DNA of 64,000 nt, from positions 3,507 to 67,506 of the forward strand of contig CAIOAT010000029.1 in the NCBI GenBank assembly GCA_903856085.1, given 5' to 3'. The stretch is from Candidatus Omnitrophota bacterium. GTDB lineage: Bacteria > Omnitrophota > Omnitrophia > Omnitrophales > Aquincolibacteriaceae. Position 1 is the first letter of the stretch, and each line of letters begins with the position of its first letter. The notes below the pieces were generated by a model. It had not been told where the DNA came from. It ran no database searches and was given only the letters and a program-made list of their open reading frames with translations. Made by a program: the position numbers and the translations under genes. Below are positions 1 through 31,008 of this stretch, piece after piece.

Positions 1-1
1 C

Positions 2-418
2 CCGGACAATAAGATCGTAGGCCTCATTCTCGCCCCGCAGGACTCTGTGATCGTTCGTGATGTTTAAGACAGATAATCCCTTCGGATCCACCTCTTCCAG
101 CCTCTTTACTTTAACCGGCTGCCGAGCATTATCTATTTTTAAAAAGATACCCTTTAGATTTATATACTTGCTCCAGGGAACATCGAGCCTTCTTCCAAAA
201 TTATGCCCAGGGCTTAGCATGGGCCGGGAAACCAGAAGGGTCCTGCGCAGAAAGAAGGCCTCCTGGGCGTGCAATCCGAGCGCCCATTTCAAATGGTTCA
301 TCCCGAACATGTTGGTCGCTTTCACATATAAATATTTTTCGCAACCGCTTTCAGGCAACTTTTGCGCGGCTCGAAAATCTTCGGGGGAATATGCGCCGTC
401 TTTTGCATCAGAATTCAT
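2..418 (-). CDS. Hypothetical protein, partial. The start codon is at 418 on the minus strand and the gene runs off the window edge.
   Basis: My own reverse-complement translation gives an uninterrupted frame from ATG at 418-416 to position 2 (MNSDAKDGAYSPEDFRAAQKLPESGCEKYLYVKATNMFGMNHLKWALGLHAQEAFF...). It reads like protein and has the same orientation as the upstream operon. The plus-strand ORF 57..422 in the track is low-complexity and is probably its antisense shadow. Confidence 0.4.
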   Translation of the reverse strand, partial: MNSDAKDGAYSPEDFRAAQKLPESGCEKYLYVKATNMFGMNHLKWALGLHAQEAFFLRRTLLVSRPMLSPGHNFGRRLDVPWSKYINLKGIFLKIDNARQPVKVKRLEEVDPKGLSVLNITNDHRVLRGENEAYDLIVR

Positions 419-640
419 TTAGATTACCCCGCTTCGTCCCAATCACCCCAGCCTCGTTTCTTTCTGGCACGATAAAGAAAGTAATAGCCTCAACGCCTGC
501 TCCATCTGTCTTAATACCGCCTCGCTCAAGATCAGGATAATGATCCAGATGTTGCTGCCGAACATTCCCGGCCAAGACGCAGCGAACAACTCTTCGTAGA
601 AAAACCGTTATAGCGCTACAACCGACAGATATCTTTCGAC
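409..640 (-). pseudogene. Degenerate orphan copy of the 'YPDL...GI.T...HY..G..EGR' C-terminal module, with no start codon.
   Basis: The minus-strand frame translates as ...RQQHLDHYPDLERGGIKTDGAGVEAITFFIVPERNEAGVIGTKRGNLNEF* with no upstream ATG. The DNA at about 500-590 aligns at roughly 75% identity to 1510-1600, which encodes the intact module at the C-terminus of the 693-aa glycosyltransferase. Confidence 0.45.
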
Positions 641-1345
641 ATAATGAAGGCGTTCGGGAAACTCGCTTTTAATATATTCTCTCCAACCCGGAAGAACTTT
701 TGGATCGCATTGGCGCTTGTGAAAGTGGGGATCTTCCCCGCTCACCGAACCTGACCATTCACGCCCGCGGGCCGTTCTGCTTAGTTGAACAAGGCTGTCA
801 TATTGTCGCATAAACAAACCGACTCTTCTCAGCGAGATCCCCAGAAACTTTAAAAGCCTTTCGATCTCGTCTTGGGGAGTCGCCAGCAGGTCTTCGTAAT
901 AAACAAGGTGCTTCTTGCCCCCGTAATCATGAAATTTCTGAACCAATAACATGTAATGGTTAAGATCCTGTTTAAGCACCTTTCCTTTATGCCTGGTGAT
1001 GCATTCGAAGGGATCCCTTAATATCAAGATCAACCGCACCGCCTGCCCCCGGCGCTTTACTTGAGAATCAAAATATTCGCAGTAATGGCCCTTTCTGAGG
1101 ATCGGCATTTTGAAAGCTGCGACATGGCTCAAGGGGTTTTTGGTCGAAGAGAACTGGTTCTTGTGGATCGGCGCATCTCTTAAATTACCCTTAACCCCCA
1201 GCGTGGGTCTCCCCGAAAACCATTCGACAATAAATCGGACCCAATGATTCCCGCTCCTGGGATAGGAAATGAGAAATGTCTCTGTGTGCTCATAAACCCA
1301 TTCGTTAAGAAGGCCCTTCAGTTTTGGCACAATACCGCTTATCAT
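608..1345 (-). CDS. PAPS-dependent sulfotransferase
   Basis: A 5'-phosphosulfate-binding-type loop, SYPRSGNHW, is near the N-terminus. A 3'-phosphate-binding-type region, ILILRDPFECITRH, follows. It is the last complete gene of the cysD-cysNC operon. Confidence 0.72.
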   Translation of the reverse strand: MISGIVPKLKGLLNEWVYEHTETFLISYPRSGNHWVRFIVEWFSGRPTLGVKGNLRDAPIHKNQFSSTKNPLSHVAAFKMPILRKGHYCEYFDSQVKRRGQAVRLILILRDPFECITRHKGKVLKQDLNHYMLLVQKFHDYGGKKHLVYYEDLLATPQDEIERLLKFLGISLRRVGLFMRQYDSLVQLSRTARGREWSGSVSGEDPHFHKRQCDPKVLPGWREYIKSEFPERLHYVERYLSVVAL

Positions 1346-1426
1346 AAACCCCTCTCAGACCTCCCGCTGCTTCCTTTGCCAGCGAAAAGGCCTTCCGACG
1401 AATAAAAGTCGCCCTTGCGCCAGAGC

Positions 1427-3508
1427 TCATCCGGATGACCGCTCTCCGTCCAAACTCCCCCAGACCCGTCCCTCTCGGGCGCCAGAAAAAAAATAATGCC
1501 TAAACGCCTGGTTCTGTGTCTGAATACCGCCGCGCACAAGATCGGGATAACGATCGATATACTGCTGCCAGGCATTTTCATCCAAGGCCCGGGGCATAAC
1601 AATCTGTGGGTAGGCCTCACTGAATTTTTCTTTGAGGTCCAGGATCAAAGCGCGTCGTTTTTTATCATCTTCGGCTCCCATTTCCCGGGAGGCAAATTCG
1701 ACGAGATGATAAAACGCTAGATTTAGTTTTGCTTTTTGGTTTGGATGTTGATTTATGCTTAAGGAAACCCCCCAAAAGAACAACTCCCGTAGTTCTGGAT
1801 ATTTCTTCAAGAAGGGACGCATTTGACGAAATATGTTCTTCACGGGATTCGTAACCAGAAGCATGCTTTTCTCCGTTTTACGGTAATAGACCAATTCCTT
1901 GGGGACCAGCTCGACCCTGTATCCTTGCAAAAGAAACGTATTGAAAAGTTCAATGTCCTCATGCCCAAGACCATGATCCTCCGTGAACCCTCCGGCTTTA
2001 AGAAGCGACGATTTTTTCACGAGACAATTCGCATCCCCGACAAAATTATGTAAAACTCCAAGGCTGACAGGACCTCCCAGGGGGGAGTGCATGTTCCCGA
2101 CAAATCGAATAACGTTCCTCGTGATGTCCTGGAAAAACTTTAGTTGACAGACGTAGGCATCCGCCTGCGTTCTCGCGGCCGCCTGCTGAAAATCCGCGAT
2201 GCAGGTATCGGCCATGACGTTGTCATCGTCCAAAAACAAAAGGTATGGATTTTGGCTGCGCCGGCTTTCATAGTTGCGGGCAGCACCGAGATAGCCGTGG
2301 GTTTTATAGAATATTTTCCACCGTCTTTTCTTGAACTCCGGCTCCAGAGATTTCAGATAAGCCAGCGAATCGGGTTCACAACTTCCATCGTCGCAGAGAA
2401 TGACCTCGAAGTTTTTTGGGGCCTGGCGGTATAAAGACTCCACGGCATCTTTTAACATGAGACCGCGATTATAGTGCGTCAGACAGACCGAAACGGCTGG
2501 CAATGACTTAACCTTCACTGAGGTCCGGACTGGCGTGTCGCGCAAAAGGTCCGCCCAGGAACTCCCCGACCCAATATCATGCTTGGTGTGCTGGAAAGCG
2601 ATCGTGTTGCGGGTCAGAATTTCTTTCAGAGCCATCTCCAATATCACGGGATTGTTCAGCGCCGTGAGACGCTTCCACCGATTCTTCCCCAAATGTTCCC
2701 AGTCGCTAAAGTGGGGTATTTTTTTTCGAACCAAGACCGCTTGCTCAAACGGAAATTCTGATGAGCGGTTGAGGCAAATGAGCACCCCCCCCTTTACGGA
2801 CGCCTGGCGTTTCGCGCAGGCTAAAAAGGTCGTTTGCTCCTTGACCAGGATCTCGCGAAACTTCTTCTTTTCTCTCAGAATTCTCACCATTCTTTGCAGC
2901 GACCGCGGTAGCGGGGCCGGTGCGCCAAACATCAGCCTTAACGAGAGGTTGTGCGTTAAATCGTCGTCCATCTGCCCAAGCACGGCCAGAATGGAAGAAA
3001 CGCCGTACGAATTATCATAATGCCCCCACACGCCAAGCTCAGACAGCTTCTCAGGGTTATTTTTATTTGACGGCAGAACCGGGCACTGCCCGGAGGGGTC
3101 GATAATGACGGGACGGCTCTTGCGTAAACCGACAGCCCCTGCAAACATGGGCGTTACAAGAAAATCGGCTTGCGCTCTTGAGCGTTCCTCCATAAACAAT
3201 GATGCGGCCTCATGAACCGAGGTTAAAAGGGTGCCCTCACCTTGAAATTCATCAATGCGATCGACCAGCCCCAACACGATGATCTGTGTATCCTGAAAAT
3301 GCAGCCCGACCCGTTTGGCCTGAATGGCGATATCCCCCAGTCCGGTCAGATCCGCAAAAATAAGATGCGAGTATTTGCGGGTTTTGAGAAACTCGAAAAC
3401 TGCATAACTTTTATCCTGGGCAAACGCAGAGTGAGGGGCCGGCGACACAAAGACTTGCTTAAGCTTGTCCCCGAACAGGCCCGGAGGGACTTCCCCGAAG
3501 GTGACCAA
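1427..3508 (-). CDS. Large two-domain glycosyltransferase with a family-2 GT domain in the C-terminal half, a possible GT-B-like N-terminal half, and a C-terminal ~40-aa YPDL/HY..G..EGR module.
   Basis: The GT2 signature is SVCLTHYNRGLMLKDAVESLYRQAPKNFEVILCDDGS followed by a DxD-type LFLDDDN. The N-terminal ~330 aa are unassigned. The C-terminus, NAWQQYIDRYPDLVRGGIQTQNQAFRHYFFSGAREGRVWG, matches the C-terminus of the 3746..4735 protein. Confidence 0.7.
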   Translation of the reverse strand: MVTFGEVPPGLFGDKLKQVFVSPAPHSAFAQDKSYAVFEFLKTRKYSHLIFADLTGLGDIAIQAKRVGLHFQDTQIIVLGLVDRIDEFQGEGTLLTSVHEAASLFMEERSRAQADFLVTPMFAGAVGLRKSRPVIIDPSGQCPVLPSNKNNPEKLSELGVWGHYDNSYGVSSILAVLGQMDDDLTHNLSLRLMFGAPAPLPRSLQRMVRILREKKKFREILVKEQTTFLACAKRQASVKGGVLICLNRSSEFPFEQAVLVRKKIPHFSDWEHLGKNRWKRLTALNNPVILEMALKEILTRNTIAFQHTKHDIGSGSSWADLLRDTPVRTSVKVKSLPAVSVCLTHYNRGLMLKDAVESLYRQAPKNFEVILCDDGSCEPDSLAYLKSLEPEFKKRRWKIFYKTHGYLGAARNYESRRSQNPYLLFLDDDNVMADTCIADFQQAAARTQADAYVCQLKFFQDITRNVIRFVGNMHSPLGGPVSLGVLHNFVGDANCLVKKSSLLKAGGFTEDHGLGHEDIELFNTFLLQGYRVELVPKELVYYRKTEKSMLLVTNPVKNIFRQMRPFLKKYPELRELFFWGVSLSINQHPNQKAKLNLAFYHLVEFASREMGAEDDKKRRALILDLKEKFSEAYPQIVMPRALDENAWQQYIDRYPDLVRGGIQTQNQAFRHYFFSGAREGRVWGSLDGERSSG

Positions 3509-3745
3509 ATCTATCTCATGCCCAAGGGATTGCAGGGAATTCGCGTACGCACAAAAAAGAAGACCCCTGCGGTGGCTCTCCCAACCCGTACCTTCAAAAG
3601 GACAAATGACCGCCAGCTTCAGAAATGCTCCTTCGTTCTTTTATGCCCGATCAGTGTATGAGGGAAAATCTCATGGCGCCCGATTCTAAAACTGTTCTTT
3701 CCCCGCCGAAGCACCTCCTGGGCGCCTCTTGCTAGAAGCGGCTGA

Positions 3746-4735
3746 TCAATAATTTATTCTCCGCCCTTCCTTTTTACCATGTGTTAAGTAATGCTTCCAG
3801 GCTTTTTCTCTCGTATTGATCCCTGCTTTTATCAGATCAGGATATTCCCTGACATAAAATTCCCAATCAAAATCCACCGTCGCCGAAGGTCTCTCTCCCT
3901 CCGCATTGCCTCCCTTTTTCATCCGAGGCGAAAAGAAAAAATTAATCCCCGGAAGACTCTTGAAGCAATGCCGCGCCCTTTGCCAAATCTGGTAACAGGG
4001 GTTTTCATGCCGAGAACAGTAAAGGCAAAAAAGCCAATAGGCAACGCGGTTCCGCTCAAGCCGGATGTATTCCCGAACCAAGGCTTCCTTTTGTTCATCG
4101 GACTGTTTTTGCAAAGCGGTCGTCATCCTGACCAAGCCATCCCTGGGGACAGAAAGAAAATCGAGCACGCGCCCTACCTCCCGCTCCCGGTCAGAAACAA
4201 GATCCTCAAAATAGACTTCGAGATAGTTCCGCCCGTCAGCTTTGAGAATTTTTTTCCAGTTGGCTTCCTCGCGCCTCAGCATGGTAATATCCCGAAAAAT
4301 ATCCTCTTTCTTGATAGAAGATGCCTTTTTCTTCGGAGCCCTGCCGCTGGTGTTCAGCCACTCTGTGGTTTCTTTGGCTCTTGCAAAAGAGACCGCCTGT
4401 CGAACTTTGTCCCGCCTCAGAACCAATATGATCCCCGCATTTTCGGAAAAAAAACGGAACGCCTCCTGGACTGACGTCAGACGACTGTCTGCACGTTTTG
4501 ACTGAACAAGTTCTTTGAGATGTCCATAGTGGACCTTGAAACCTAACGGTTTTTCTCTTGGAGATTGCAATGCCGCGAGCAGGGGGGCGGGCGAACGATT
4601 GTTCTGCAAAGGCTCGTAATGGCCAAGATCCGTTTGAAAAAGGGTGACGGCGCCAGTGCTCTCAAGCAGGCTGCATAATAGCGTGCTCCCCGTCCTGCCG
4701 GATGAGCAAACAATAAAACGATCGTATTTCTTCAT
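3746..4735 (-). CDS. Sulfotransferase (Stf0-like P-loop type) carrying the C-terminal YPDL/HY..G..EGR module.
   Basis: The N-terminus has IVCSSGRTGSTLLCSLLESTG, a PAPS 5'-PSB loop. ILVLRRDKVRQAVS looks like a 3'-phosphate-binding motif. The C-terminus is FDWEFYVREYPDLIKAGINTREKAWKHYLTHGKKEGRRINY. Confidence 0.68.
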   Translation of the reverse strand: MKKYDRFIVCSSGRTGSTLLCSLLESTGAVTLFQTDLGHYEPLQNNRSPAPLLAALQSPREKPLGFKVHYGHLKELVQSKRADSRLTSVQEAFRFFSENAGIILVLRRDKVRQAVSFARAKETTEWLNTSGRAPKKKASSIKKEDIFRDITMLRREEANWKKILKADGRNYLEVYFEDLVSDREREVGRVLDFLSVPRDGLVRMTTALQKQSDEQKEALVREYIRLERNRVAYWLFCLYCSRHENPCYQIWQRARHCFKSLPGINFFFSPRMKKGGNAEGERPSATVDFDWEFYVREYPDLIKAGINTREKAWKHYLTHGKKEGRRINY

Positions 4736-4871
4736 ATCATCTATCCGGAATTCCTTTGAAATAAAAACATCGAATCGCTAATACAGCCCACTCCAAGATT
4801 CGTTGGCTCACAGGGATCTTCGGCAGCCCTTCCTTCGCCAGAATACTTCCAGGCGCCGTTTTGCTGCCGCC

Positions 4872-6800
4872 TCATCCCCGAATTAAAAAACCCTGCTCCC
4901 TCAAATGCCGGAGGATCCTCTCCGCTAAAAGATCCACGCTTTCTTCGCCCGTCTTGAGATGGATCGCAGGGACTTCGGGTGCCTCATAAGGAGCATTCAC
5001 GCCGGTAAACTCCGGGATCAATCCGGCCCTGGCCTTTTCGTAAAGTCCCTTGGGATCCCGTTTCTCACAGATCTCAATCGGCGCGTCGGTATAGATCTCA
5101 AGGAAACTGTCTTTTCCGATGATATTCCTCGCTTGCTCCCGGTCTTCCCGGTAGGGCGAAATAAAAGCCGTGATCACGAACACGCCCGCTTCGTTGAAAA
5201 GATGGGCAACCTCGGCAACGCGCCGGATATTCTCACTCCGGTCCCCAGGAGAAAACCCGAGGTCCCGGTTCAGGCCGTGACGGACATTGTCTCCGTCGAG
5301 GACATAACACAAATGACCTTCTGCCATGAGTCTTTTTTCGAGTTCAAACGCGATCGAAGATTTTCCCGAACCGCTCAGGCCCGTCAGCCATAGAGTGGCT
5401 GGCTTTTGCCGCAAGAGCTTTTCTCGGTCCTTGCTTGAGACCGTCCCCTCTTGCCGGTGGATGAAGGAACTTTTCACTTCTCCTTTTTCGTCCGGTTTTA
5501 CCATGGCCGGCAAACGTCCCCGCTCGATGATCATGCCTGCCGCCACCGTCCCATGCGTCATGGGATCGATCATAATAAAGCTCCCGGTTTGCCGGTTCTT
5601 CGTGTACTCGTCGCAGAAAATCTCCCGGTAAAGCTGCATGGTCACGCGTCCGATCTCATTGAGCTTTAATTTCGAAGTTTTTTCGCGACTCAAACTTTCC
5701 GGATTGATCCGGAAATGAAGGCGGGTAACCGTCCCTTTCACAAGCTGGGTCGTGTGCTTGATAAGGTAGAGTTTTCCGGGCTTCATGACTTCGTGATCCA
5801 TCCAGACAAGAATGGCATCGATCTCTCGGCGAATCCCGGGAAGATTGGCCGGATGAACGAGCATATCTCCGCGGGTGATATCGATCTCATCTTCCAGCGT
5901 CACCGTGACCGCCTGCGACGAAAACGCATAAGAAGTCTCGCCTTCTTCCGTCAGGATGGTTTTGACCTTGGTCTTCCGCTGCGAAGGAAGCACGAGGATG
6001 GGATCTCCCCTCCGAATGATGCCCGAGACCACACAACCGCAATAGCCGCGGAATTCCCTGTCGGGACGGAGCGCGTACTGGACCGGAAGCCTAAGATCGA
6101 TCAGATTTCGGTCGCTCAATATTCTGACGTTCTCAAGAAAATTCAAAAGCGAGGGGCCTTCGTACCACGGCATGCGCCCGCTTCGCTGAACCACATTGTC
6201 CCCCATAAGCGCACTGATCGGAATATAGGTCAGATCCGGCACACTGAGCTTTTCCACAAAGCTTTCTAGATCATCCTGAATCTTCCGGAAAACCTCTTCG
6301 GAATAATTCACAAGGTCCATTTTATTGATCGCGAAAACCATGTGACGGATGCCCAGGAGCGACGAAATAAATGTGTGCCGCCTGGACTGGACTAGGACCC
6401 CTTGCCGGGCGTCGATCAAAATAATGGCCAGATCGGCCGTTGAAGCTCCCGTCGCCATATTCCGCGTGTATTGCTCATGCCCCGGTGTGTCCGCAATAAT
6501 AAAATGCCTTTTGGGAGTTGAGAGATGGCGGTAGGCCACGTCGATCGTGATCCCCTGCTCTCGTTCGGCCTTCAGGCCGTCCATCACAAGCGACAGATCC
6601 AGTTCCTCGCGCTTGAATTTTTGGGAGTCTTTGCGAACCGCAGCAAGCTGGTCCTCATAAAGACCGTTCGCTTCATAGAGCAATCGTCCGATCAGGGTGG
6701 ATTTTCCGTCATCGACGCTGCCAGCGGTCGTAAATCGGAGAAGGTCCGCTTCCTGGTTCTGCTTGAGAAAGGTTTCGATGGCAGGCCGGTTCGCGTCCAT
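4872..6800 (-). CDS. cysNC: Bifunctional sulfate adenylyltransferase subunit 1 / adenylylsulfate kinase (CysN-CysC fusion, NodQ-like).
   Basis: The N-terminal GTPase G1 motif is GSVDDGKSTLIGRLL. The C-terminal APS-kinase P-loop is WLTGLSGSGKSSIA. The gene is 642 aa, and its ATG overlaps the cysD stop in an ATGA arrangement at 6800. Confidence 0.93.
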   Translation of the reverse strand: MDANRPAIETFLKQNQEADLLRFTTAGSVDDGKSTLIGRLLYEANGLYEDQLAAVRKDSQKFKREELDLSLVMDGLKAEREQGITIDVAYRHLSTPKRHFIIADTPGHEQYTRNMATGASTADLAIILIDARQGVLVQSRRHTFISSLLGIRHMVFAINKMDLVNYSEEVFRKIQDDLESFVEKLSVPDLTYIPISALMGDNVVQRSGRMPWYEGPSLLNFLENVRILSDRNLIDLRLPVQYALRPDREFRGYCGCVVSGIIRRGDPILVLPSQRKTKVKTILTEEGETSYAFSSQAVTVTLEDEIDITRGDMLVHPANLPGIRREIDAILVWMDHEVMKPGKLYLIKHTTQLVKGTVTRLHFRINPESLSREKTSKLKLNEIGRVTMQLYREIFCDEYTKNRQTGSFIMIDPMTHGTVAAGMIIERGRLPAMVKPDEKGEVKSSFIHRQEGTVSSKDREKLLRQKPATLWLTGLSGSGKSSIAFELEKRLMAEGHLCYVLDGDNVRHGLNRDLGFSPGDRSENIRRVAEVAHLFNEAGVFVITAFISPYREDREQARNIIGKDSFLEIYTDAPIEICEKRDPKGLYEKARAGLIPEFTGVNAPYEAPEVPAIHLKTGEESVDLLAERILRHLREQGFLIRG

Positions 6801-7705
6801 CAGAAATATCCCTCCCTTTTTTTCTTTTCCATGGAGGAGTCCTGGTCATGGTCGATCAAGCGCGTGATGCGTTCCGAATTCGTGACGGTCATAACCTCTT
6901 CAATGATCTCGGGAACGGTGGCCGCCTTGGAAAGCACGGCGCCGGTACAGGGATAACAGCCGAGCGTCCGGAACCGGCACATGATTTTTTGAGGCTTCTC
7001 ATCTTCTTTAAGGGGAATCGGGCCTTCGAGCGGAATAAGGCATCCCCCACGGACGATCATCTCGCGCTCCTTGGCGAAATACATAGGAACGACTGGTATT
7101 TTTTCAAGATGGATATAGTGCCAAACGTCGAGCTCGGACCAATTGGAAAGCGGAAACACGCGGATGCTTTCGTTTGGATTGATCAGGGTGTTGTAAAGAT
7201 TCCAAATCTCGGGGCGCTGGTTCTTGGGATCCCATTGACCGAATTCGTCGCGAAAAGAAAAGATGCGCTCCTTAGCTCTGGATTTTTCTTCGTCGCGCCG
7301 CGCCCCGCCGAATGCCGCATCATAACCGCCTTCTTTCAGGGCTCGCAGTAACGCCTGCGTCTTCAGAAGCGCGCAACATTTGACCGTGCCAAGCTCCCAA
7401 GGATTTGTCCCCCGGGACAGGGCTTCCCGAAACGAGTAAACCTTGAGCTCCGCGCCGATCTCTTTTGCGTAGCGGTCGCGAAATTCATACATTTCACGGA
7501 ATTTCATTCCGGTATCAACATGGAGGAGCGGGAACGGTATCTTGCCGGGATAAAAGGCTTTCTGCGCCAGGCGGACCATCACCGAGGAATCTTTGCCGAC
7601 AGAATAAAGCATCACAGGCTTTTCAAACGCGGCCATGACCTCGCGAATGATGTAAATGCTTTCGGCTTCGAGAAGTTTCAGCTTGCTAAGTCTATAGCTT
7701 TCCAC
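6800..7705 (-). CDS. cysD: Sulfate adenylyltransferase subunit 2
   Basis: It carries the PP-loop motif [11 protein letters not shown] of the PAPS-reductase-like fold. It is 301 aa and translationally coupled to cysNC. Confidence 0.93.
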
Positions 7706-7842
7706 GATTCTTTTTTGTCCGCTTTCACTCCCGCCGACACAGCGACGAAGAGCTGGGGTCCATTAAAAGTTTTTCCGCGTTTGGGGGAAGGTGGTCAGAA
7801 CCGTCACGCTTTCTGCATTGTTTTTTTTCGAGATGCAAATTA

Positions 7843-7936
7843 TGGCGGAGGGGGGGGGATTTGAACCCCCGGTGACGCTTTCGCGCCACATCGGTTTAGC
7901 AAACCGACGCACTAAGCCGGGCTATGCGACCCCTCC
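7843..7936 (-). tRNA. tRNA-Ser (anticodon GCU), class II with a long variable arm and encoded CCA.
   Basis: The minus strand reads GGAGGGGTCGCATAGCCCGGCTTAGTGCGTCGGTTTGCTAAACCGATGTGGCGCGAAAGCGTCACCGGGGGTTCAAATCCCCCCCCCTCCGCCA. The acceptor pairs GGAGGGG with CCCCTCC. The anticodon arm is TCGGT / loop TTGCTAA / ACCGA, giving anticodon GCT. The T-loop is GGGGG TTCAAAT CCCCC, followed by discriminator G and CCA. Confidence 0.85.
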
Positions 7937-8323
7937 GCGAATCAACCCATAGACAGCAAACTACGGGCTTAAAACAGTAGACAAAAAATCGAAACTCTTG
8001 CGGCGGGACTACGCGCCGCTAAAAAAATCTCTGCCCTTTCATCGCCAAACCGAGACATAATATAACATGATAACGAGAAAGCAGAGATAAAATGGTTCGA
8101 ATTTTTGACCTTTTTGCCTGCCTTTTAGCCTCGCAACTTGTCGCAGTCCGTCCAAATTAAGCTATGGGCCTGGCCCGTGCGGTTCTCGTTTCATTTTCCG
8201 CGCCTGCTCATTACACGCAAAGATTCCGCTTTTTCCCGCTCCCGAAACAACACCTCTTTCGTCAAAATAGCCTCGCGAGGATAAAGACCTCCAGGACATT
8301 TCTTCTAAGCCGGTATCCCGCGC

Positions 8324-9130
8324 CTAAAGACTAAGCCGTTTAGTTAATAGCGGTACGAATCGCTGGATGGTCACATCGACCTCATCATTCCGATCGAGAT
8401 TTTTAAAGAACTGCTTCGGCCTGAGGGCTTTAACGGTTGCCCTTCCACGCAAACGCTTCCTTTCGCTTTCCTGAAGAGATTTCACAATATAGTGATTGAT
8501 GCGCAACTTCGCCGCCTTGGGCGACACCACGGCCCCGAATAAATTTTTCCGTGTCGGCGAAATAAAATTCTTGTCCTCATCGACAGGGCAGGCCTCCCCC
8601 TGATAGAAAAAAGCATGCGCATTGGCACATCCCAGAGCTGAGGATGTGTGAAGGATTGTTTTAATGTGGGAGTTAATCATGAATTCCAGCGGAGCTCGGC
8701 GGGTAAAGTTCTTGATCACAAGACCCCCGGGGTTCCTCGCATGGCCAGAGCTGCCGAAGATCAGCCAGTTGACAACGACGCCACAGAACGCCTCGTAGTC
8801 TCGCAAGACGTGGCAAAGACTATCCTGTTCGGTTCCAAAAAGAAATTCGTCTAAATCGATGAAAGCGATCCAGTGCGCTGCCGCGGAAAAATGTTTGAGA
8901 CAGTGGTTATAGGCCTGCACTTGGCCGGGGTGGATCGGCCAATCCACGAGCACCACTTCCCCCTTCTTCAGATAAGGACCCAATACTTCGCGGGTGTTGT
9001 CACGACTACCATTGTCATAAAGGTAAAAACGCCCAACACCGACGATCTTGTGAAACTCGATCCATTCCCGAAGATACGGCCCTTCATCCTTTATGGTGGC
9101 ACAAATTGCCAAGTAGTCGCGCTTTTCCAT
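8324..9130 (-). CDS. Glycosyltransferase, GT92/DUF23-like
   Basis: The N-terminus LAICATIKDEGPYLREWIEFHKIVGVGRFYLYDNGSRDNT fits the GT92 / Glyco_transf_92 pattern. The rest shows GT-A-fold features. Confidence 0.58.
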   Translation of the reverse strand: MEKRDYLAICATIKDEGPYLREWIEFHKIVGVGRFYLYDNGSRDNTREVLGPYLKKGEVVLVDWPIHPGQVQAYNHCLKHFSAAAHWIAFIDLDEFLFGTEQDSLCHVLRDYEAFCGVVVNWLIFGSSGHARNPGGLVIKNFTRRAPLEFMINSHIKTILHTSSALGCANAHAFFYQGEACPVDEDKNFISPTRKNLFGAVVSPKAAKLRINHYIVKSLQESERKRLRGRATVKALRPKQFFKNLDRNDEVDVTIQRFVPLLTKRLSL

Positions 9131-9150
9131 TCTCTTGTGCCCTTAGTCGG

Positions 9151-9369
9151 CTAAATTTTCGCCTCATGTAAGATTCTTTGCTTGGGATAACGCGCGATCG
9201 TTCTTTGCAAGCGCTGAAAGATCTCCGCAAGGGGTTCAATCAAGAGAACATTGAGATCATGACGCGCGTAGATATCAGCCTCTTGCCCGCGTTTGGCGCC
9301 ACCATGAATAGCGCCTCGGATGTCTGATAGAAAATTGTCCAGCCTTCCCCAAAAAAATCTCACCCCCAT
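9151..9369 (-). CDS. Small hypothetical ORF of 72 aa between two GT genes, possibly a gene fragment.
   Basis: The frame is open with no recognisable motif. It is tightly spaced, 20-24 nt, from both neighbours. Confidence 0.25.
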   Translation of the reverse strand: MGVRFFWGRLDNFLSDIRGAIHGGAKRGQEADIYARHDLNVLLIEPLAEIFQRLQRTIARYPKQRILHEAKI

Positions 9370-9393
9370 GAACCCATCACTCCTCGGTCAGCC

Positions 9394-10128
9394 TCACTGC
9401 CATTTTTTGAATTTTATTTTCCATGTGGCTATCGCCACCATTCTCATCAGTCGCAGGGAATGCCGCCATCGCTTGATCTGAGGAGCCCCATACGTCCTGC
9501 TTTTATACCGGACAGGGATCTCGGCGATTTTCAAACCCAACTTTGACGCGCCCATAAGAAGATCGAAATCACCCCATGGATCGGAATACCCGAAATACCC
9601 GCGCGATTGATGGATGCTTTGATAGTCAGAGCGGAACATGACTTTAACACCGCAAAGAACATCCGTAAAACGCTGGCCGAGCAACCAAGAAAGGAACAAC
9701 GCCGACAATTTGTTGCCGAAGAGATTCAAGAGCGGCATGGCGCCTTTTTCCATCGGCAGAACCAATCTGCTGCCGTTAATAAAATCCCCTTTGCCATCGC
9801 GCAAGGCTCTATAAAAAAGCTCTAGATCTTCGGGCATGACGGTCAGATCCGCGTCGAGAATCATCAGAATATCCCCGCTGGATTTGTCAAAACCCAGCCG
9901 CACAGCATCGTTTTTCCCCTCTCCGGTTTGGCGGAAAAGCTTGATGTCTTTGCCCGAATTCCCCCTGATCACGCGGGAACATTCCTCGTAGGTGCCATCG
10001 ACAGAATGCCCTTCCACAAATATCAGTTCCTGTCGCGTTCCGAACGAAGGAATATTTTTTACCGTTGTTTCGATGTTGCCTTTTTCATTCCGGCAGGGAA
10101 CAATAATCGAAACTGAACATTCCTCCAT
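9394..10128 (-). CDS. Family-2 glycosyltransferase (polyprenyl-phosphate glycosyltransferase / DPM1-like)
   Basis: The GT2 N-terminal signature is SIIVPCRNEKGNIETTV. ILDADL is a DxD-type motif. The 244-aa size is typical. Confidence 0.8.
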   Translation of the reverse strand: MEECSVSIIVPCRNEKGNIETTVKNIPSFGTRQELIFVEGHSVDGTYEECSRVIRGNSGKDIKLFRQTGEGKNDAVRLGFDKSSGDILMILDADLTVMPEDLELFYRALRDGKGDFINGSRLVLPMEKGAMPLLNLFGNKLSALFLSWLLGQRFTDVLCGVKVMFRSDYQSIHQSRGYFGYSDPWGDFDLLMGASKLGLKIAEIPVRYKSRTYGAPQIKRWRHSLRLMRMVAIATWKIKFKKWQ

Positions 10129-10171
10129 AAATAATGCGGTCGCCTTTATTTTAATTTGGCGGAAAAGATGG

Positions 10172-10262
10172 CGGAGAGGGCGAGATTCGAACTCGCGAGA
10201 CCTTGTGAGTCTACCCGCTTTCCAGGCGAGCGCACTAGACCAGGCTATGCGACCTCTCCATA
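10172..10262 (-). tRNA. tRNA-Ser (anticodon GGA), class II with encoded CCA.
   Basis: The minus strand reads GGAGAGGTCGCATAGCCTGGTCTAGTGCGCTCGCCTGGAAAGCGGGTAGACTCACAAGGTCTCGCGAGTTCGAATCTCGCCCTCTCCGCCA. The anticodon arm is CTCGC / loop CTGGAAA / GCGGG, giving anticodon GGA. The T-loop is GCGAG TTCGAAT CTCGC. The 5' half is near-identical to the tRNA at 7843..7936. Confidence 0.85.
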
Positions 10263-10433
10263 AATGAGCGCCTGACTTACGGCGCCAAAAGCGACGTCAA
10301 GTCAGCCGTGCGAATTTCTGCCGCGACCCCGCGGCCTGGCGGGCGAAACGGAGATTTTTGTGTTCCCCGCGCATAAAGCACGCTAGAGTTTATTTATTTC
10401 AGATAAAACAATCAAGGAATGAAAACGCCTCGC

Positions 10434-11705
10434 TTACGCCAGGTAAGGCTGCAGAGCTTTCGGAAAAAGAATCTGTCCGTTCGCATCCTGGAAATTTTCG
10501 AGGAGACAAAGAACGATCCTGGCGAGCGCTAACCCAGAGCCGTTGAGCGTATGAACGAATTCGAGTTTCTTGGTTTGGGCATTCCGGTAGCGGATATTCA
10601 TCCTCCGCGCCTGAAAATCCGTAAACAGGCTGCAGCTTGAAACCTCAAACCATTTCTGCGTCGCGGGCGCCCAGACCTCGAGATCAAAACACTTCGCAGC
10701 CGCGAAGCTCATGTCTCCGCTCCCGAGGAGTAAGACGCGATACGGAAGTTCCAGCGCTTGAAGGACTTCTTCGGCATCGTTCACGAGAGATTCGAGTTCC
10801 TTCTCCGAATTTTCCGGCTTTACAAACTTCACCATCTCGACTTTGTCGAATTGATGAACGCGCGAAAGCCCACGGGTGTCTTTCCCGTAAGAGCCTGCTT
10901 CCTTGCGAAAACACGGTGTGTATCCCGTGTATTTAACCGGGAGATCTTTTTCTTCGATCGTTTCGTCGCGCATCAAATTAGTGATCGGAACTTCCGCTGT
11001 CGGAATAAGAAAATAAGAACCCTTTTCTTCACCTTCCCCCGCCGCCAGGGCGTACATGTCCTCTTCCATTTTAGGGATCTGCCCAGTACCCCTCATGGAA
11101 GCGCGATTGACAATGGCTGGGGCCCAGACCTCCGTGTAGCCGTGTTTTTTAATATGCAGGTCGATCATGAAGTTGATCAAGGCCCGTTCAAGCTTGGCGC
11201 CTGCTCCAAAGTAGACTGGAAAGCCCGCCCCAGTGATCTTGCTTCCCTTTTCCATAGAGAACAGGCCTAGCTTGGAGGCTAGATCGAGGTGGTCTTTCGC
11301 CTTAAATTCATGCTTCCGGGGCTCGCCCCATGTCCGGACTACTTTATTGCCCTCTGCGCCCTTGCAAACAGGGACATCTTTCATTGGCAAATTAGGGATT
11401 GAAAGCATTATTTTATCTATTTTTTCTGATAATTCACCCACTTTTGAATCAAAATCTGCTATTTTTTGGGCTGCCGCCTTCATTTCTAATATAATGGAGT
11501 CTGCGGGGTGTCCCTGTTTCTTGAGGCGGGCAATCTCATCGCTGGCGGAATTCCTCTTTGCCTTAAGCTCCTCGCTTTGTTTCAGGAGGGTTCTCTTGTC
11601 CAAGTCAAGATCAAGGAGGGTTTGGATGCCGGCTGAAACCCCTTTGGCGTCAAGGCCTTGGGCGACTTGTTCGGGATTTTCACGGATGAACTTTAGGTCG
11701 AGCAT
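10434..11705 (-). CDS. serS: Seryl-tRNA synthetase
   Basis: It is 423 aa with an N-terminal coiled-coil arm followed by a class II aaRS core. It sits immediately upstream of tRNA-Ser(GGA). Confidence 0.95.
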   Translation of the reverse strand: MLDLKFIRENPEQVAQGLDAKGVSAGIQTLLDLDLDKRTLLKQSEELKAKRNSASDEIARLKKQGHPADSIILEMKAAAQKIADFDSKVGELSEKIDKIMLSIPNLPMKDVPVCKGAEGNKVVRTWGEPRKHEFKAKDHLDLASKLGLFSMEKGSKITGAGFPVYFGAGAKLERALINFMIDLHIKKHGYTEVWAPAIVNRASMRGTGQIPKMEEDMYALAAGEGEEKGSYFLIPTAEVPITNLMRDETIEEKDLPVKYTGYTPCFRKEAGSYGKDTRGLSRVHQFDKVEMVKFVKPENSEKELESLVNDAEEVLQALELPYRVLLLGSGDMSFAAAKCFDLEVWAPATQKWFEVSSCSLFTDFQARRMNIRYRNAQTKKLEFVHTLNGSGLALARIVLCLLENFQDANGQILFPKALQPYLA

Positions 11706-14283: not shown

Positions 14284-17122
<2,839 letters not shown>

Positions 17123-17155
17123 GAAGAACCGTTCTATTATCGTCCTTTTTCCCGG

Positions 17156-18256
17156 CTAGTTAAGCTGCATCGGCATGATCACGTAAAGATATCCTTCGCG
17201 CCCCTTGATCAGCCCCGGCTTGTCTGGGCTTGTTAAAGAAATACTAATATTTTCATCGGAAAGGTTTTTCAAGACATCTAAAAAATATCCCGGGTTGAAA
17301 CCGATGGTTATTTCCTCTCCCTTAAAATCGGCCGAAAGCTCTTCTTTCGCCTCTCCCATGTTTGGGGTTTTGGCGGAAATAATGATTTTGTTTTTTATAA
17401 AATCAAATTTGAGCGCGGGAGCTTCTGGGGAGGTTAAAAGCGCCGCTCGCCGAACTGCTTGCAAAAATTCTTCCCGGTTCGCGTGAACCAGAGTTTTTTC
17501 TTCTTTAGGGATCACCTGATCGTAGTTTGGAAAATTTCCTTCAATAAGACTGGAGGTGAGAAAGGTGTCCTCGAGAGAAAAAATGACTTTGTTTTGCGTG
17601 TGAATGATTTTTACCACCCCCTCCCATCCTAAAAGCTTTAAAAGCTCGTGGATGGTTTTCGCGGGAATAATCATCTCCATACTTTTACTGTTTTTTTGTT
17701 TCGTCTCTTTTTTATAAAAAGCCAGCCTTCTCCCATCTGTTGCCACAAAACGTATATTGTTCCCCTGTATAGAGAGAAGCACTCCGTTTAAAACATACCT
17801 CGTTTCGTCATGGGAAATTGCAAAAGAGGTTAGCAAAAGACTTTCCTTTATAACCGCTTGCTCTATCTCGATCGCGTCCTCGAGAGAAAAATCGGGTAGT
17901 TTAGGGTATTCCTCTTTATCCAAACCCATGATTTTAAAATTAGATTTTCCTGCTTTAATATTAACAGTGTTGTTTTTGGTAACGTTTATTTCCACAAGTC
18001 CTTCGGGAAGCTCTTTTATAATATCAAAAAACTTTCTCGCGGGAACGGTGATGCTTCCGCTCTGTAGAATCTCCACTGGTAATAGTGTGGAGATCCCCAC
18101 TTCCATATCAGTAGCAATAATTTTAAGCTTTCCGTCTTTTTGAGTTTCCAGGAGAAGATTGTTTAATATGGGGAGGGTGCTTGGTTTTGATGCGGCAATA
18201 TTTACTCCCAAAGTGATTTTTTTTAACAATTCGCTCTTTTGCACTTTAATTTCCAT
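17156..18256 (-). CDS. dnaN: DNA polymerase III beta sliding clamp
   Basis: It is 366 aa with three-domain beta-clamp architecture, directly downstream of dnaA. Confidence 0.95.
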   Translation of the reverse strand: MEIKVQKSELLKKITLGVNIAASKPSTLPILNNLLLETQKDGKLKIIATDMEVGISTLLPVEILQSGSITVPARKFFDIIKELPEGLVEINVTKNNTVNIKAGKSNFKIMGLDKEEYPKLPDFSLEDAIEIEQAVIKESLLLTSFAISHDETRYVLNGVLLSIQGNNIRFVATDGRRLAFYKKETKQKNSKSMEMIIPAKTIHELLKLLGWEGVVKIIHTQNKVIFSLEDTFLTSSLIEGNFPNYDQVIPKEEKTLVHANREEFLQAVRRAALLTSPEAPALKFDFIKNKIIISAKTPNMGEAKEELSADFKGEEITIGFNPGYFLDVLKNLSDENISISLTSPDKPGLIKGREGYLYVIMPMQLN

Positions 18257-18320
18257 AAAAGCTCCTTCTTCTTTTATTCTATATTAAAAACAGAAGTCTT
18301 AGTAATAAGACCTGTGAATT

Positions 18321-18383
18321 TGTGGATATCCTACACAACTATTTTAAAAAGAACGAGATATAAAAAAGTTTTTTTGTGGAAAA
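18321..18383. promoter_or_regulatory. DnaA-box cluster in the dnaA-dnaN intergenic region (candidate oriC half).
   Basis: TGTGGATAT at 18321-18329 and TGTGGAAAA at 18375-18383 each differ from the TGTGGATAA consensus by one base. They lie in an AT-rich spacer. Confidence 0.5.
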
Positions 18384-18388
18384 CGCCA

Positions 18389-19747
18389 CTACTTTTTTAA
18401 CAGCCCCGTTAACTTATCCAACAAGCTTCGCACCCCAACATCTTTATCTCTTTCTCCCGCGATTTTATTACAAGAGTGAAGAACAGTGGTGTGGTCTTTC
18501 CCTCCAAAAAATTCTCCAATCTCAGGAAAAGAGTGCGTTGTTAGTTCCCGGACCAGATACATCGCTATCTGTCGTGGACGCACAATAGAAACAGTCCTTT
18601 TTTTTGCCCGGAGATCTGAAACCTTTAAATTAAAATAGTCCGCCACCACCTTTTGAATGCCTTCTATGGTAAATTTTTGAGCTTCTTCTTTGAAAGAATC
18701 TTTCAATATCTCTTGAGCGAGGCGAACATCTACTTTGGAGTCGGTAAGAGTGCAATAAGCCACAACGCGGATAAGAGCGCCCTCCAATTCCCGGATATTC
18801 GACTTGATTTTTCCCGCAATAAAATACGACACATCATCAGGCACCACAACGGTTTCCAGCTCCATCTTCTTCTTTAAAATCGCGACGCGAGTTTCAAAAT
18901 CCGGCGGCTGGATGTCTGTGACAAGACCCCAGCCAAAACGAGAAACAAGCCGCTCTTCCAATCCCGGGATCTCACGGGGAGGCCGGTCGCTTGTGACAAC
19001 GATCTGCTTGTGAGCGTCGTAAAGAGTATTGAAGGTATTAAAGAACTCTTCCTGGGTAGAATTTTTTTCTGCTATAAAATGAACATCGTCGATTAGCAAA
19101 AGATCAAGGGTGCGATATTTTGCTCGGAACTGAGGGGTTGATTTTGTTTGAATGGCCGTGATCAGCTGATTGGTGAACTTTTCACTGGAAATGTACAGGA
19201 TCTTAAACTCCGGATGGCGCCTTTTCATCTCGTGGGCGATGGATTGTAAGAGATGGGTTTTTCCAAGACCCGTTGGGCCGTAAATAAAGAGAGGGTTGTA
19301 CTGTTTGGCCGGAGATTCGCTGACGGCGACGGAAGCCGCATGGGCAAAGCGGTTCCCTGGGCCGATCACAAAAGCATCAAAGGTGTATTTTTGATTCAAT
19401 CCCACGAGGACCTCATCCCTTTCTTTTGTCGGGGAAGAAATAGGCAGTGAGGGCGCAGCCTTGGGGAGCTCGACTACTTGATAGAGAATTTTCAAGGGGC
19501 GCCCGAGAACTTCTTCAGCAGAAGCAAGAATAAGGTTCTGATAGTGGTCTTCAAGCCATTTCCCATAGTATTGATCAGGGACGCTCAAGGTGAGAGCTTC
19601 AGCAGAAACGTCCAGGAGAGAAATGGGCTCAAACCAAGTTTTAAAAGACCGCTCGCTTAATTCCCGCGAGAGAAGAGAGCAAATTTTTTTCCAAAGGTCC
19701 GCCGGGGAGGTACCAGGGAGCGAAGAAAGGGGCTGATTTACTGACAT
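18389..19747 (-). CDS. dnaA: Chromosomal replication initiator protein DnaA
   Basis: It is 452 aa. The AAA+ Walker A is GPTGLGKTHLL. The C-terminal DNA-binding domain carries FGGKDHTTVLHSCNKI. Confidence 0.97.
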   Translation of the reverse strand: MSVNQPLSSLPGTSPADLWKKICSLLSRELSERSFKTWFEPISLLDVSAEALTLSVPDQYYGKWLEDHYQNLILASAEEVLGRPLKILYQVVELPKAAPSLPISSPTKERDEVLVGLNQKYTFDAFVIGPGNRFAHAASVAVSESPAKQYNPLFIYGPTGLGKTHLLQSIAHEMKRRHPEFKILYISSEKFTNQLITAIQTKSTPQFRAKYRTLDLLLIDDVHFIAEKNSTQEEFFNTFNTLYDAHKQIVVTSDRPPREIPGLEERLVSRFGWGLVTDIQPPDFETRVAILKKKMELETVVVPDDVSYFIAGKIKSNIRELEGALIRVVAYCTLTDSKVDVRLAQEILKDSFKEEAQKFTIEGIQKVVADYFNLKVSDLRAKKRTVSIVRPRQIAMYLVRELTTHSFPEIGEFFGGKDHTTVLHSCNKIAGERDKDVGVRSLLDKLTGLLKK

Positions 19748-20084
19748 AAGGACTCTTTTATAGTTATAAACAGGTTATTAATAAGAAAAAATTTATTATT
19801 TCCAATAATGTATTCTAATGAGATAAAATTACTTAAAATCAATAAATAGCTTATAAACATGTTTTCAACAGCGAAAAACAGGCCAAAATAAACGTTCGCT
19901 CCCAGACAAGGGGCGAACGCAACTCACAAGAGAGGTCATTCTACAGCAAAAAAATATTTTGTCCACGGGCAAAAAAAATTTTAACAAAAGAAAAGGTGAG
20001 AAAAGAAAAAGGGGAAAAGTTTTTTTGCCAGATCAAAATAAAACGCTGGATATTACCAGCGAACTTCACTATAATTCACGCCTC
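19748..20084. promoter_or_regulatory. Candidate oriC / DNA-unwinding element between divergent dnaA and rpmH.
   Basis: A very AT-rich tract runs about 19760-19860. The DnaA-box-like 9-mer TTATAAACA occurs twice, at 19764-19772 and 19851-19859, and TTGTCCACG occurs near 19958. Gene orientation switches here: everything from 608 to 19747 is on the minus strand, and everything from 20085 to 60646 is on the plus strand. Confidence 0.55.
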
Positions 20085-20222
20085 ATGAAAAGAACATACC
20101 AGCCTTCCAAAAGAAAACGTCGTAACAAGCACGGCTTTCTTGCCCGCACGCGGACTGCCGGAGGACGGAAAGTCCTCGCGCGCCGCCGGAAAAAGGGCCG
20201 GAAAAAGCTGACCCAAGTCTAA
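20085..20222 (+). CDS. rpmH: 50S ribosomal protein L34
   Basis: The product is [45 protein letters not shown], 45 aa. It uses the internal start of track ORF 19959..20222. TATAAT at 20070-20075 lies 10 nt upstream. Confidence 0.9.
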
Positions 20223-20225
20223 GCG

Positions 20226-20809: not shown

Positions 20810-20817
20810 GGAAAAAT

Positions 20818-31000: not shown

Positions 31001-31008
31001 ATTAAAAA

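Follow-up and report, generated by a model that had tools for sequence, protein, structure and literature searches.

The 64,000-nt stretch analyzed here (the window) belongs to the metagenome-assembled genome (MAG) of an Omnitrophota bacterium from stratified lakes, and at its left end it carries genes for sulfate activation, two sulfotransferases (ST1 and ST2), and several glycosyltransferases (GTs). The GyrA of the window falls in a 90% cluster that includes NCBI entries for Candidatus Omnitrophota bacterium. The sulfation genes form a 9.6-kb, seven-gene accessory island and are not part of core sulfur assimilation. Judged from sequence, the glycan-sulfation cassette that they specify, with its own supply of 3'-phosphoadenosine 5'-phosphosulfate (PAPS), is real and probably functional, and the explanation favored on balance is that the island is self-contained and makes a sulfated glycoconjugate. 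An earlier examination of the window (the original prediction) had described six minus-strand open reading frames (ORFs) in this region; all six were found where it had placed them, and profile searches upheld their identities. Genes beyond the edge of the window were read on a source contig (L001; window coordinate = 11346 - L001 coordinate). An exact look-up of the ST2 protein recovered such contigs, among them a 379-kb ENA scaffold and JGI 3300022555, from metagenomes of stratified lakes. The same gene order and intact ORFs are present in at least six assemblies, and both are kept in a diverged strain in which ST2 is 95% and the 693-residue GT 86% identical at the protein level. The features of the island are as follows.

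6800-7705, minus strand: cysD, ATP sulfurylase small subunit (NCBIfam CysD and Pfam PAPS_reduct)
4872-6800, minus strand: cysN/cysC fusion, ATP sulfurylase GTPase subunit plus adenosine 5'-phosphosulfate (APS) kinase, predicted to make PAPS (NCBIfam PRK05506, Pfam)
3746-4735, minus strand: ST1, Stf0/NodH-family PAPS sulfotransferase (residues 1 to ~225) with a C-terminal tail module of ~40 residues (Pfam PF09037, 1TEX)
1427-3508, minus strand: 693-residue GT, with a degenerate GT4-derived N-domain, an intact GT2 domain (residues ~335-575), and a tail module (Pfam, alignments)
608-1345, minus strand: ST2, 245-residue PAPS sulfotransferase of the SULT fold, rare family (Pfam PF00685, profile, fold)
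1-418, minus strand: first 139 codons of the gene for a 307-residue enzyme of the fucosyltransferase fold (GT-B) (contig L001, family alignment, fold)
0.5-2.1 kb beyond the window start: remainder of that gene, DUF707 gene, SIMPL remnant, and tRNA-Arg(ACG) (source contig L001)

PAPS supply by CysD and CysN/CysC

The island encodes both components of a NodP/NodQ-type PAPS pair. CysD lies above the cut-offs of two NCBIfam models (PRK05253, 461 bits versus 195; TIGR02039, 450 versus 397), and its Pfam PAPS_reduct match (E = 6.6e-52) is that of an ATP pyrophosphatase of the PAPS_reduct fold. CysN is fused to APS kinase: the bifunctional NCBIfam model PRK05506 is matched over residues 6-637 with 916 bits (cut-off, 715), and Pfam recognizes both GTP_EFTU (E = 1e-42) and APS_kinase (E = 5e-66, residues 467-615). 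It had been proposed that cysD and cysNC are translationally coupled through a 4-nt ATGA overlap at 6800. The coupling stands, but the overlap is smaller; the junction reads TTC TGA TGG, so that stop and start codon together give TGATG, with one base in common at 6800.

The original prediction had also set these genes apart from cysteine biosynthesis. In agreement with this, they do not lie beside cysH and cysI but inside the 9.6-kb insertion, and no gene for cysH/PAPS or APS reductase, cysI, or sulfite reductase was present among the ORFs scanned within the 64-kb window, which include most ORFs of at least 200 residues. A scan of 185,579 species genomes for CysD yielded at least 597 loci, of which the best 80 were inspected. 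No Omnitrophota locus is among these 80, and the nearest CysD (73% identity), from a Kiritimatiellia MAG, is flanked by two sulfotransferases and an APS kinase. In a phmmer search of the other 79 loci with this island's sulfotransferases as seeds, one locus was matched, that of Bradyrhizobium jicamae (L086); the seeds are too divergent for the misses to be true negatives. A Pfam scan at the CysD loci covered selected ORFs of three loci. Because no reductase gene is among the scanned ORFs of the window, the island is missing at this locus in sister species (below), no Omnitrophota CysD is among the best 80, and the nearest CysD is sulfotransferase-linked, the comparison favors a sulfation-linked CysD/CysNC lineage that would have been acquired along with the island. 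The PAPS made by the island would then serve sulfation and not cysteine synthesis.

The two sulfotransferases

Both of the putative sulfotransferases are recognized by hidden Markov models of sulfotransferase families, as the original prediction would have it. ST1 matches Pfam PF09037 (Stf0, "Sulphotransf") with E = 2.5e-18 (66.9 bits versus 22) and the solved structure of Stf0, PDB 1TEX, with E = 2.8e-7. Its RTGSTLL loop aligns with RSGSTLL of 1TEX, the 5'-phosphosulfate loop, and LRRDKVRQAVSF aligns with the 3'-phosphate region of that structure (RRD...QAVS motif); the profile match, the phosphosulfate-binding loop, and the 3'-phosphate motif of the Stf0/NodH family are thus all present. ST1 is nevertheless a member of this family and not an ortholog of Stf0, because it scores 65.6 bits against the NCBIfam trehalose 2-sulfotransferase model NF047724, whose equivalog cut-off is 400, and because its nearest full-domain homologues are just 26-28% identical among the 5.8 billion cluster representatives in which relatives of ST1 and ST2 were sought.

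For ST2, the Pfam score (PF00685, Sulfotransfer_1) is above the gathering threshold (30.4 bits versus 22) over a short stretch only, residues 139-173, and a family profile and the fold agree with it. The family is rare: 23 relatives were found, the closest being 39-48% identical. In an alignment of 20 family sequences, a SYPRSGNHW loop, His87, and Arg110 are invariant or nearly so; by analogy, we take these to be the 5'-phosphosulfate-binding (PSB) loop, the catalytic His, and the 3'-phosphate-binding (3'-PB) Arg. The profile made from the 20 sequences matches 59 PDB chains, nearly all of them named sulfotransferases, with a best E value of 2e-11 over ~170 positions. Furthermore, the top 50 Foldseek matches of the AlphaFold model of ST2 (mean predicted local distance difference test score [pLDDT], 87) are all PAPS-sulfotransferases (probability 1.0; template modeling [TM] score, 0.35-0.56). 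The nearest structural neighbors are cytosolic small-molecule sulfotransferases (SULTs), StaL, and plant sulfotransferases (SOTs). Family match, fold, loop, His, and Arg are thus those of a SULT-type enzyme. The two sulfotransferases had been called unrelated. They do belong to different Pfam families, but the word overstates the difference, since both fall in one PAPS-sulfotransferase fold class.

The genomic neighborhoods of ST2 relatives that were read (six of six) are glycan loci, and they are of three kinds. The first consists of loci of the lipopolysaccharide (LPS)-core type with Kdo kinase, GT9, three or four GT25, and LptFG; the second is a GT4/GT61/GT2/Sulfotransfer_3 cluster; and the third is made up of virus-like contigs with fucosylation/sulfation cassettes. 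It is on contigs of this third kind (L007, L008, and L010; 32-37 kb, with 3'-5' exonuclease, dUTPase, and PhoH) that the closest ST2 relatives, with up to 48% identity, are found (ST2-like gene at ~9965-10660). Their cassette holds GT2, GT7C, Sulfotransfer_2, a GT10 fucosyltransferase, a methyltransferase, Sulfotransfer_2, the ST2-like gene, a GDP-mannose dehydratase, and an epimerase, which an APS kinase joins in L007 only. Relatives of ST2 also occur on 19 IMG/VR contigs (L098-L116; 42-409 kb, one of them a giant-virus MAG) and in a 484-kb uncultured phage (INPHARED LR756508.1, 317925-318398). The gene content of the virus-like cassette suggests virus-encoded sulfated, fucosylated glycans.

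The glycosyltransferases of the island

The product of 1427-3508 had been described as a 693-residue two-domain glycosyltransferase, a description that holds for its GT2 domain. This domain is intact, with a match to Pfam Glycos_transf_2 (PF00535) over residues 340-465 (E = 1.8e-21; 77.2 bits versus 23.3) and a DxD motif (LFLDDDN, which aligns with FMDDDN of homologues), as expected of a GT2 (GT-A) enzyme. Among 1.84 billion representatives, tens of thousands of GT2 relatives of the protein were found. Four of its homologues (P0080, P0101, P0153, and P0185), which are GT4+GT2 two-domain proteins, align with it from residue ~31 to ~588, and P0185 is a natural Sulfotransfer_3 + GT4 + GT2 fusion. 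The description fails for the N-terminal domain. Here, no Pfam match was obtained even at E <= 1-10, and a profile of 50 GT4+GT2 homologues aligns only at GT4 positions 92-181, the first Rossmann half, in addition to the GT2 domain. The EX7E segment, ENSPYSVME in P0101, falls in a deletion of the 693-residue protein. Since the domain has no Pfam match, aligns over the first Rossmann half only, and has lost the EX7E segment, it is a degenerate GT4 relic and probably noncatalytic.

The annotated TTG start of this gene is preceded by 38 in-frame codons (3509-3622, minus strand) that reach back to a CTG at 3622; AAGGAG lies 5 nt upstream of the CTG, and the sequence is identical in six assemblies. 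The extension resembles the first beta-alpha-beta unit of a GT4 domain, a resemblance that lies at the expected position and is not significant (BLASTP E = 0.31). The family profile leaves the extension unaligned, and it has no Pfam match. The CTG may be a noncanonical start of the 693-residue GT.

At the window edge, the original prediction had seen an unknown gene running off the sequence. The gene is there, and on the source contigs it specifies a 307-residue protein whose modeled fold is that of a fucosyltransferase. The protein has no Pfam, NCBIfam, or PDB sequence match, and thus no sequence model places it in the fucosyltransferase superfamily; its family is very rare, with ten members (nine relatives). 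All ten contain HVRRG, followed in nine of them by Asp, which we take to be the HxRRxD nucleotide-sugar-binding motif of that superfamily. The AlphaFold model (pLDDT 87) finds fucosyltransferases at all of Foldseek PDB ranks 1-21, among them Arabidopsis FUT1 (AtFUT1), human FUT8, Bradyrhizobium NodZ, and POFUT1, with probabilities of 0.92-1.0 but TM scores of just 0.37-0.46. Both fold and HxRRxD motif are consequently in accord with the superfamily (GT23 NodZ/FUT8, GT37, GT65 POFUT1, and GT11). Genes for relatives of the protein belong to a Wzm/Wzt cluster of the O-antigen type or neighbor a Sulfotransfer_1 gene. No GDP-fucose synthesis genes are present within the island. The last gene, 15 bases downstream, encodes a 354-residue DUF707/GT64-like protein (DUF707, E = 1e-5) that has no PDB or NCBIfam relative and is probably GT-A-like.

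A shared C-terminal tail module

ST1 and the 693-residue GT end in a common module of ~35 residues (YVREYPDLIKAGINTREKAWKHYLTHGKKEGR in ST1 and YIDRYPDLVRGGIQTQNQAFRHYFFSGAREGR in the GT), the consensus of which is Y-x3-YPDL-x3-GI-x-T-x3-A-x2-HY-x3-G-x2-EGR. Its occurrences in the window are these.

3761-3856, minus strand: tail module of ST1 (motif scan)
1466-1561, minus strand: tail module of the 693-residue GT (motif scan)
424-560, minus strand: frameshifted, out-of-frame tail remnant in the spacer between ST2 and the fucosyltransferase-like gene (six-frame scan)

The remnant was detected through YPDLERGGI at 513-539 in the six-frame motif scan, which found the motif nowhere else in the window. 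By eye, QQHLDHYPDLERGGIKTDGAG continues in another frame as YYFLYRARKKRGWG, to be compared with WQQYIDRYPDLVRGGIQTQNQAFRHYFFSGAREGRVWG of the 693-residue GT. There is no Pfam model for the module. It was rejected as a general feature of the 693-residue GT family, one of 149 representative homologues carrying it. It does occur in tandem in a 538-residue protein (P0050; L117 8001-9617) of a giant-virus-like contig that also codes for FtsH, an epimerase/2OG-oxygenase fusion, GT25, and DUF5672. A common docking or localization function is a reasonable guess for the tail.

Borders of the island and the upstream insertion

The island is flanked by tRNA genes, and a second, smaller insertion lies upstream of it.

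10169-10259, minus strand: tRNA-Ser(GGA), left anchor of the upstream mini-insertion (ARAGORN; Rfam RF00005, 50.5 bits)
9394-10128, minus strand: GT2 of 244 residues, AglJ/DPM1-like (polyprenyl-phosphate hexose transferase-like) (Pfam Glycos_transf_2, E = 7.8e-21)
9151-9369, minus strand: 72-residue ORF between the upstream GT genes (called in all source contigs; no Pfam match)
8324-9130, minus strand: GT92-like (GT-A) glycosyltransferase of 268 residues (Pfam Glyco_transf_92 and Glyco_tranf_2_4)
7843-7936, minus strand: tRNA-Ser(GCT), upstream border of the sulfation island (ARAGORN, Rfam)

The genes cysD to DUF707 occupy the whole interval between tRNA-Ser(GCT) and what is left of a SIMPL gene, a 200-bp 3' remnant just before tRNA-Arg(ACG). 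In sister species (GyrA at least 90% identical; shared DNA ~80-83% identical), the same interval holds other genes, and it is for this reason that the sulfation genes are an accessory island. In one of them (GCA_964482725.1), the order is serS, tRNA-Ser(GGA), tRNA-Ser(GCT), SIMPL, bestrophin-like, tRNA-Arg(ACG), dCMP deaminase, tRNA-Ser(UGA), and CstA; in another, a DUF6088/AbiEii toxin-antitoxin-like pair comes just after the two adjacent tRNA-Ser genes. The tRNA-Ser(GCT) itself is 97-99% identical in two sister loci (L011 and L014), and the island DNA flanking it has no match there. The island is thus tRNA-adjacent and absent from close relatives, as a tRNA-associated island should be. It was rejected as a classical integrative mobile element, as there is no integrase among the called genes, no att-like (tRNA-derived) direct repeat, and no deviation in composition, GC content and codon usage matching those of core genes (the codon-frequency correlation of island and core is 0.917, versus 0.933 for two halves of the core set). 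Instead, it represents a variable locus, and the tRNA cluster in which it lies, close to the origin region, is a hot spot of accessory genes.

The two GT genes at 8324-10128 had been identified as GT92-like and DPM1-like, and Pfam bears this out, the former matching Glyco_transf_92 (E = 4e-22; 79.5 bits versus 23) and Glyco_tranf_2_4 (E = 3e-15). The 244-residue GT2 was rejected as an AglJ ortholog (NCBIfam AglJ, 92 bits versus a cut-off of 325). The original prediction mentioned neither of the tRNA genes here: tRNA-Ser(GCT) separates both GT genes from cysD, and tRNA-Ser(GGA) precedes them. The GT2 gene, the 72-residue ORF, and the GT92 gene constitute a separate insertion between the two tRNA-Ser genes (window 7937-10168); in sister species, the distance from tRNA-Ser(GGA) to tRNA-Ser(GCT) is 120-355 nt, with no genes between them (L011 13965-14266; L014 14003-14538). 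The two upstream enzymes may act in the same pathway as the island.

Proposed pathway and alternative explanations

In the proposed pathway, CysD and the CysN domain, made from translationally coupled genes, would convert sulfate to APS by adenylation, after which phosphorylation by the fused CysC domain would give PAPS. An oligosaccharide would be built in the cytoplasm by soluble GTs, namely, the GT2 domain of the 693-residue protein, the fucosyltransferase-fold GT-B enzyme, and the DUF707 GT-A-like protein, to which the GT92-like and DPM1/AglJ-like enzymes of the neighboring insertion may contribute. ST1 (Stf0/NodH-like) and ST2 (SULT-fold), predicted to be soluble and PAPS-dependent, would then sulfate sugar hydroxyls, and the product may carry two sulfates, as the original prediction suggested. 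The acceptor would be a glycan; because nearly every homologue neighborhood that was read is a glycan locus, a carbohydrate acceptor is supported. No hydrophobic segment that could serve as a membrane helix is present in any of the nine proteins. Furthermore, with no initiating transferase, flippase/polymerase, or Wzm/Wzt in the island or its flanks, the locus is not a complete polysaccharide or O-antigen cluster of the Wzx/Wzy or ABC type. Given the lack of membrane segments and of a flippase, polymerase, or ABC exporter in the island, the acceptor would most likely be a glycolipid or lipid-linked glycan exported by housekeeping machinery. Candidates are a structure of the LPS- or lipooligosaccharide (LOS)-core type or a polysaccharide whose transporter is encoded elsewhere. 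Stepwise assembly on a lipid anchor would fit the gene content, and so would the decoration of a polymer made by machinery from another locus. Both the order of these steps and the route of export are what we infer from the gene content.

Several points weigh against this explanation. The degenerate GT4-like domain and the decayed tail remnant are signs of some erosion within the cluster. The island lacks genes for an initiating phosphoglycosyltransferase, flippase, polymerase, or exporter and for nucleotide-sugar (e.g., GDP-fucose) synthesis. ST1 lies far under the Stf0 equivalog cut-off of NCBIfam (65.6 versus 400), and a nonpolymeric acceptor is possible because Stf0 acts on a free disaccharide and the structural neighbors of ST2 are small-molecule sulfotransferases. 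Scans for consensus promoters and terminators gave fewer sites than shuffled controls and are uninformative, so that operon structure is not established. Finally, CysDNC may double as the only sulfate-activation system of the cell, the survey spanning the 64-kb window.

Some of these points lead to other explanations. Rather than a surface polysaccharide or LOS glycan, the product of the island might be a simple sulfoglycolipid or a sulfated small molecule. It could, for example, be an osmolyte, a di- or trisaccharide bearing sulfate, or a lipid head group like that in the route from trehalose-2-sulfate to sulfolipid-1. In this model, a short saccharide, free or bound to lipid, would be assembled by the few soluble GTs and then modified by both sulfotransferases. 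All of the enzymes are indeed soluble, no gene for export or polymerization is present, the family of ST1 includes Stf0 (the 1TEX match), and cytosolic small-molecule SULTs, StaL, and plant SOTs are nearest to ST2 in structure. Stf0 sulfates free trehalose. However, it is in LPS-core, O-antigen-type, or multi-GT loci that relatives of ST2 and the fucosyltransferase-like protein occur. As many as five GT-type genes would be a large set for a small metabolite, and ST1, at 65.6 bits versus a cut-off of 400, is not an Stf0 ortholog. A small molecule or simple sulfoglycolipid is considered the less likely product but makes a serious rival. It would be less likely still that cysD and cysNC are ordinary assimilatory genes that neighbor the glycan genes by chance, with PAPS reductase and cysteine synthesis as the main sink for PAPS and the sulfotransferases merely drawing on the pool. 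The GC content and codon usage of the island match those of the core (0.917 versus 0.933), and so the genes are long resident, as this idea would have it. It is improbable because cysD and cysNC belong to a lineage-specific insertion, which is missing from this locus in sister species, and because they are tightly packed with the sulfotransferase and GT genes and share their strand. In addition, no reductase genes are among the scanned ORFs in 64 kb, and in the best 80 of at least 597 loci there is no Omnitrophota CysD and the nearest CysD is sulfotransferase-linked.

The signs of erosion could also mean that the entire island is a decaying, nonfunctional relic, given the GT4-like domain without a Pfam match or EX7E region, the frameshifted tail remnant after ST2, and the lack of a canonical start codon for the first 38 homologous-looking codons of the 693-residue GT. 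Yet none of the nine ORFs is disrupted, either in at least six independent assemblies or in a strain with 5-14% protein divergence. Preserved motifs include the PAPS-binding loops, the catalytic His in the family of ST2, DDD in GT2, and HVRRGD in the fucosyltransferase-like protein, and CysD and CysNC score far above curated cut-offs. Decay to a nonfunctional state is thus very hard to credit. Taken together, these results leave a self-contained accessory island for a sulfated glycoconjugate as the preferred explanation. A bolder version of it, held to be quite doubtful, is that an ultrasmall, possibly host-associated Omnitrophota bearing a doubly sulfated, fucose-type surface glycan uses a minimal, exporter-less cassette of orphan enzymes, that the closest relatives of these enzymes are viral, and that the hitherto undescribed tail docks ST1 and the 693-residue GT to a common scaffold or acceptor.

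The origin region and other neighboring genes

The sulfation cluster lies ~10 kb from the origin region. This region (window ~16000-21000) was assigned because the cumulative GC skew has its minimum near 18-20 kb and because two divergent blocks meet there, with dnaA, dnaN, gyrB, and gyrA on one side and yidC, mnmG, parA, and parB on the other. A search for DnaA boxes (TTATCCACA, at most 1 mismatch) gave 15 matches versus 8.2 expected and no dense cluster that would pinpoint oriC; only two boxes, at 18321 and 18375, fall between dnaA and dnaN. Two genes here, dnaN (17156-18256; GC 0.40, GC at third codon positions [GC3] 0.44) and parA (25023-25916; GC 0.435, GC3 0.41), produce dips in GC at 16-20 kb and 24-26 kb, the GC3 of neighboring core genes being ~0.56-0.67. 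Allele replacement is one possibility.

Farther along, at 27204-34517, 34542-41505, and 41480-43877, there is a sugar-uptake/phosphorolysis block (solute-binding protein, GH94 phosphorylase, glucoamylase-like/DUF3131, and a ROK kinase or regulator), followed by biotin synthesis genes (BioB, KR, KAS, and BioF-, BioA-, and BioD-like) and Rnf subunits. On the other side, 2.5-4.1 kb beyond the window start (L001 13892-15435), a Glu/Lys-rich coiled-coil protein of more than 500 residues, with a gap of Ns inside its gene, is encoded between tRNA-Arg(ACG) and the dCMP deaminase gene. The gene is absent from this position in sister locus L014, and several assemblies stop within it, which suggests repeats.

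Related systems and significance

The closest parallel to the island is found in rhizobia, in which Nod factors are decorated with the help of nodP/nodQ (CysD and CysN-CysC), the nodH sulfotransferase, the nodZ alpha-1,6-fucosyltransferase, and the noeE fucose sulfotransferase. As in that system, an accessory element places a CysD plus CysN/CysC PAPS generator beside a sulfotransferase of the NodH/Stf0 family and an enzyme of NodZ-like fold, NodZ structures being among the top fold matches of the 307-residue protein. In contrast, the island has no nodABC machinery for a chitin-oligomer backbone, ST1 is just 26-28% identical to proteins annotated as NodH/Stf0, ST2 is SULT-like, and phylum and habitat are Omnitrophota and anoxic lake water. 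Mycobacterial Stf0 with CysDNC is alike in its PF09037 domain, in the 1TEX alignment including the phosphosulfate loop, and in a PAPS source of the CysD plus CysN/C type; it differs in that ST1 is under the equivalog threshold and has the extra tail and in that the island lacks the polyketide and acyltransferase genes of sulfolipid synthesis.

In Vibrio sp. KMM 8419, the locus for a sulfated capsule combines cysN, cysD, and cysC with several sulfotransferases and glycosyltransferases, and its authors regard PAPS genes and sulfotransferases within a polysaccharide cluster as a hallmark of sulfated polysaccharide synthesis (PMC11641403). The island shares this grouping of PAPS genes with sulfotransferases and glycosyltransferases. 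However, the 80 genes of the Vibrio locus include those for Kps-type ABC export, nucleotide-sugar synthesis, and O antigen, whereas the island has 7 (9 to 10 with the neighboring insertion), with enzymes of rare families and no transporter or sugar-nucleotide genes. Likewise, the saccharomicin (sam) cluster encodes both a sugar sulfotransferase, the fucose 2-O-sulfotransferase Sam10, and an APS kinase, Sam35, dedicated to its PAPS supply (PMC13291958). The likeness is one of gene content; sam is an actinomycete natural-product pathway with CysC only and no CysD/CysN.

The Kiritimatiellia MAG with the closest CysD (L016; JAWOJA010000030.1) represents another putative sulfation cluster (4028-4927, 7285-8013, 8131-8703, and 8700-11538), in which several ORFs have no Pfam match. 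It resembles the island in its CysD (73%) and CysNC and holds Sulfotransfer_3, Sulfotransfer_2, and an extra APS kinase; its sulfotransferases come from different families, and homologues of ST1, ST2, the 693-residue GT, or the fucosyltransferase-like protein were not detected there.

Clusters of this type are thus known from rhizobia, mycobacteria, and marine Vibrio, and the island adds to an existing theme without starting another. It stands apart in four respects: its phylum, its small size without export genes, three enzyme families that are rare, and the shared C-terminal tail. Judged by title and abstract, none of the four papers found to name both Omnitrophota and a sulfotransferase is connected with such an island. 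On the strength of those titles and abstracts, the island would be an early genomic indication that a widespread, uncultivated phylum of ultrasmall cells makes sulfated glycoconjugates. Being so compact, the complete pathway lends itself to synthesis and heterologous expression, and three poorly sampled families (the Stf0-like ST1 type without close relatives, the ST2 type with its 23 relatives, and the 10-member fucosyltransferase-fold family) are candidates for new carbohydrate-modifying activities.

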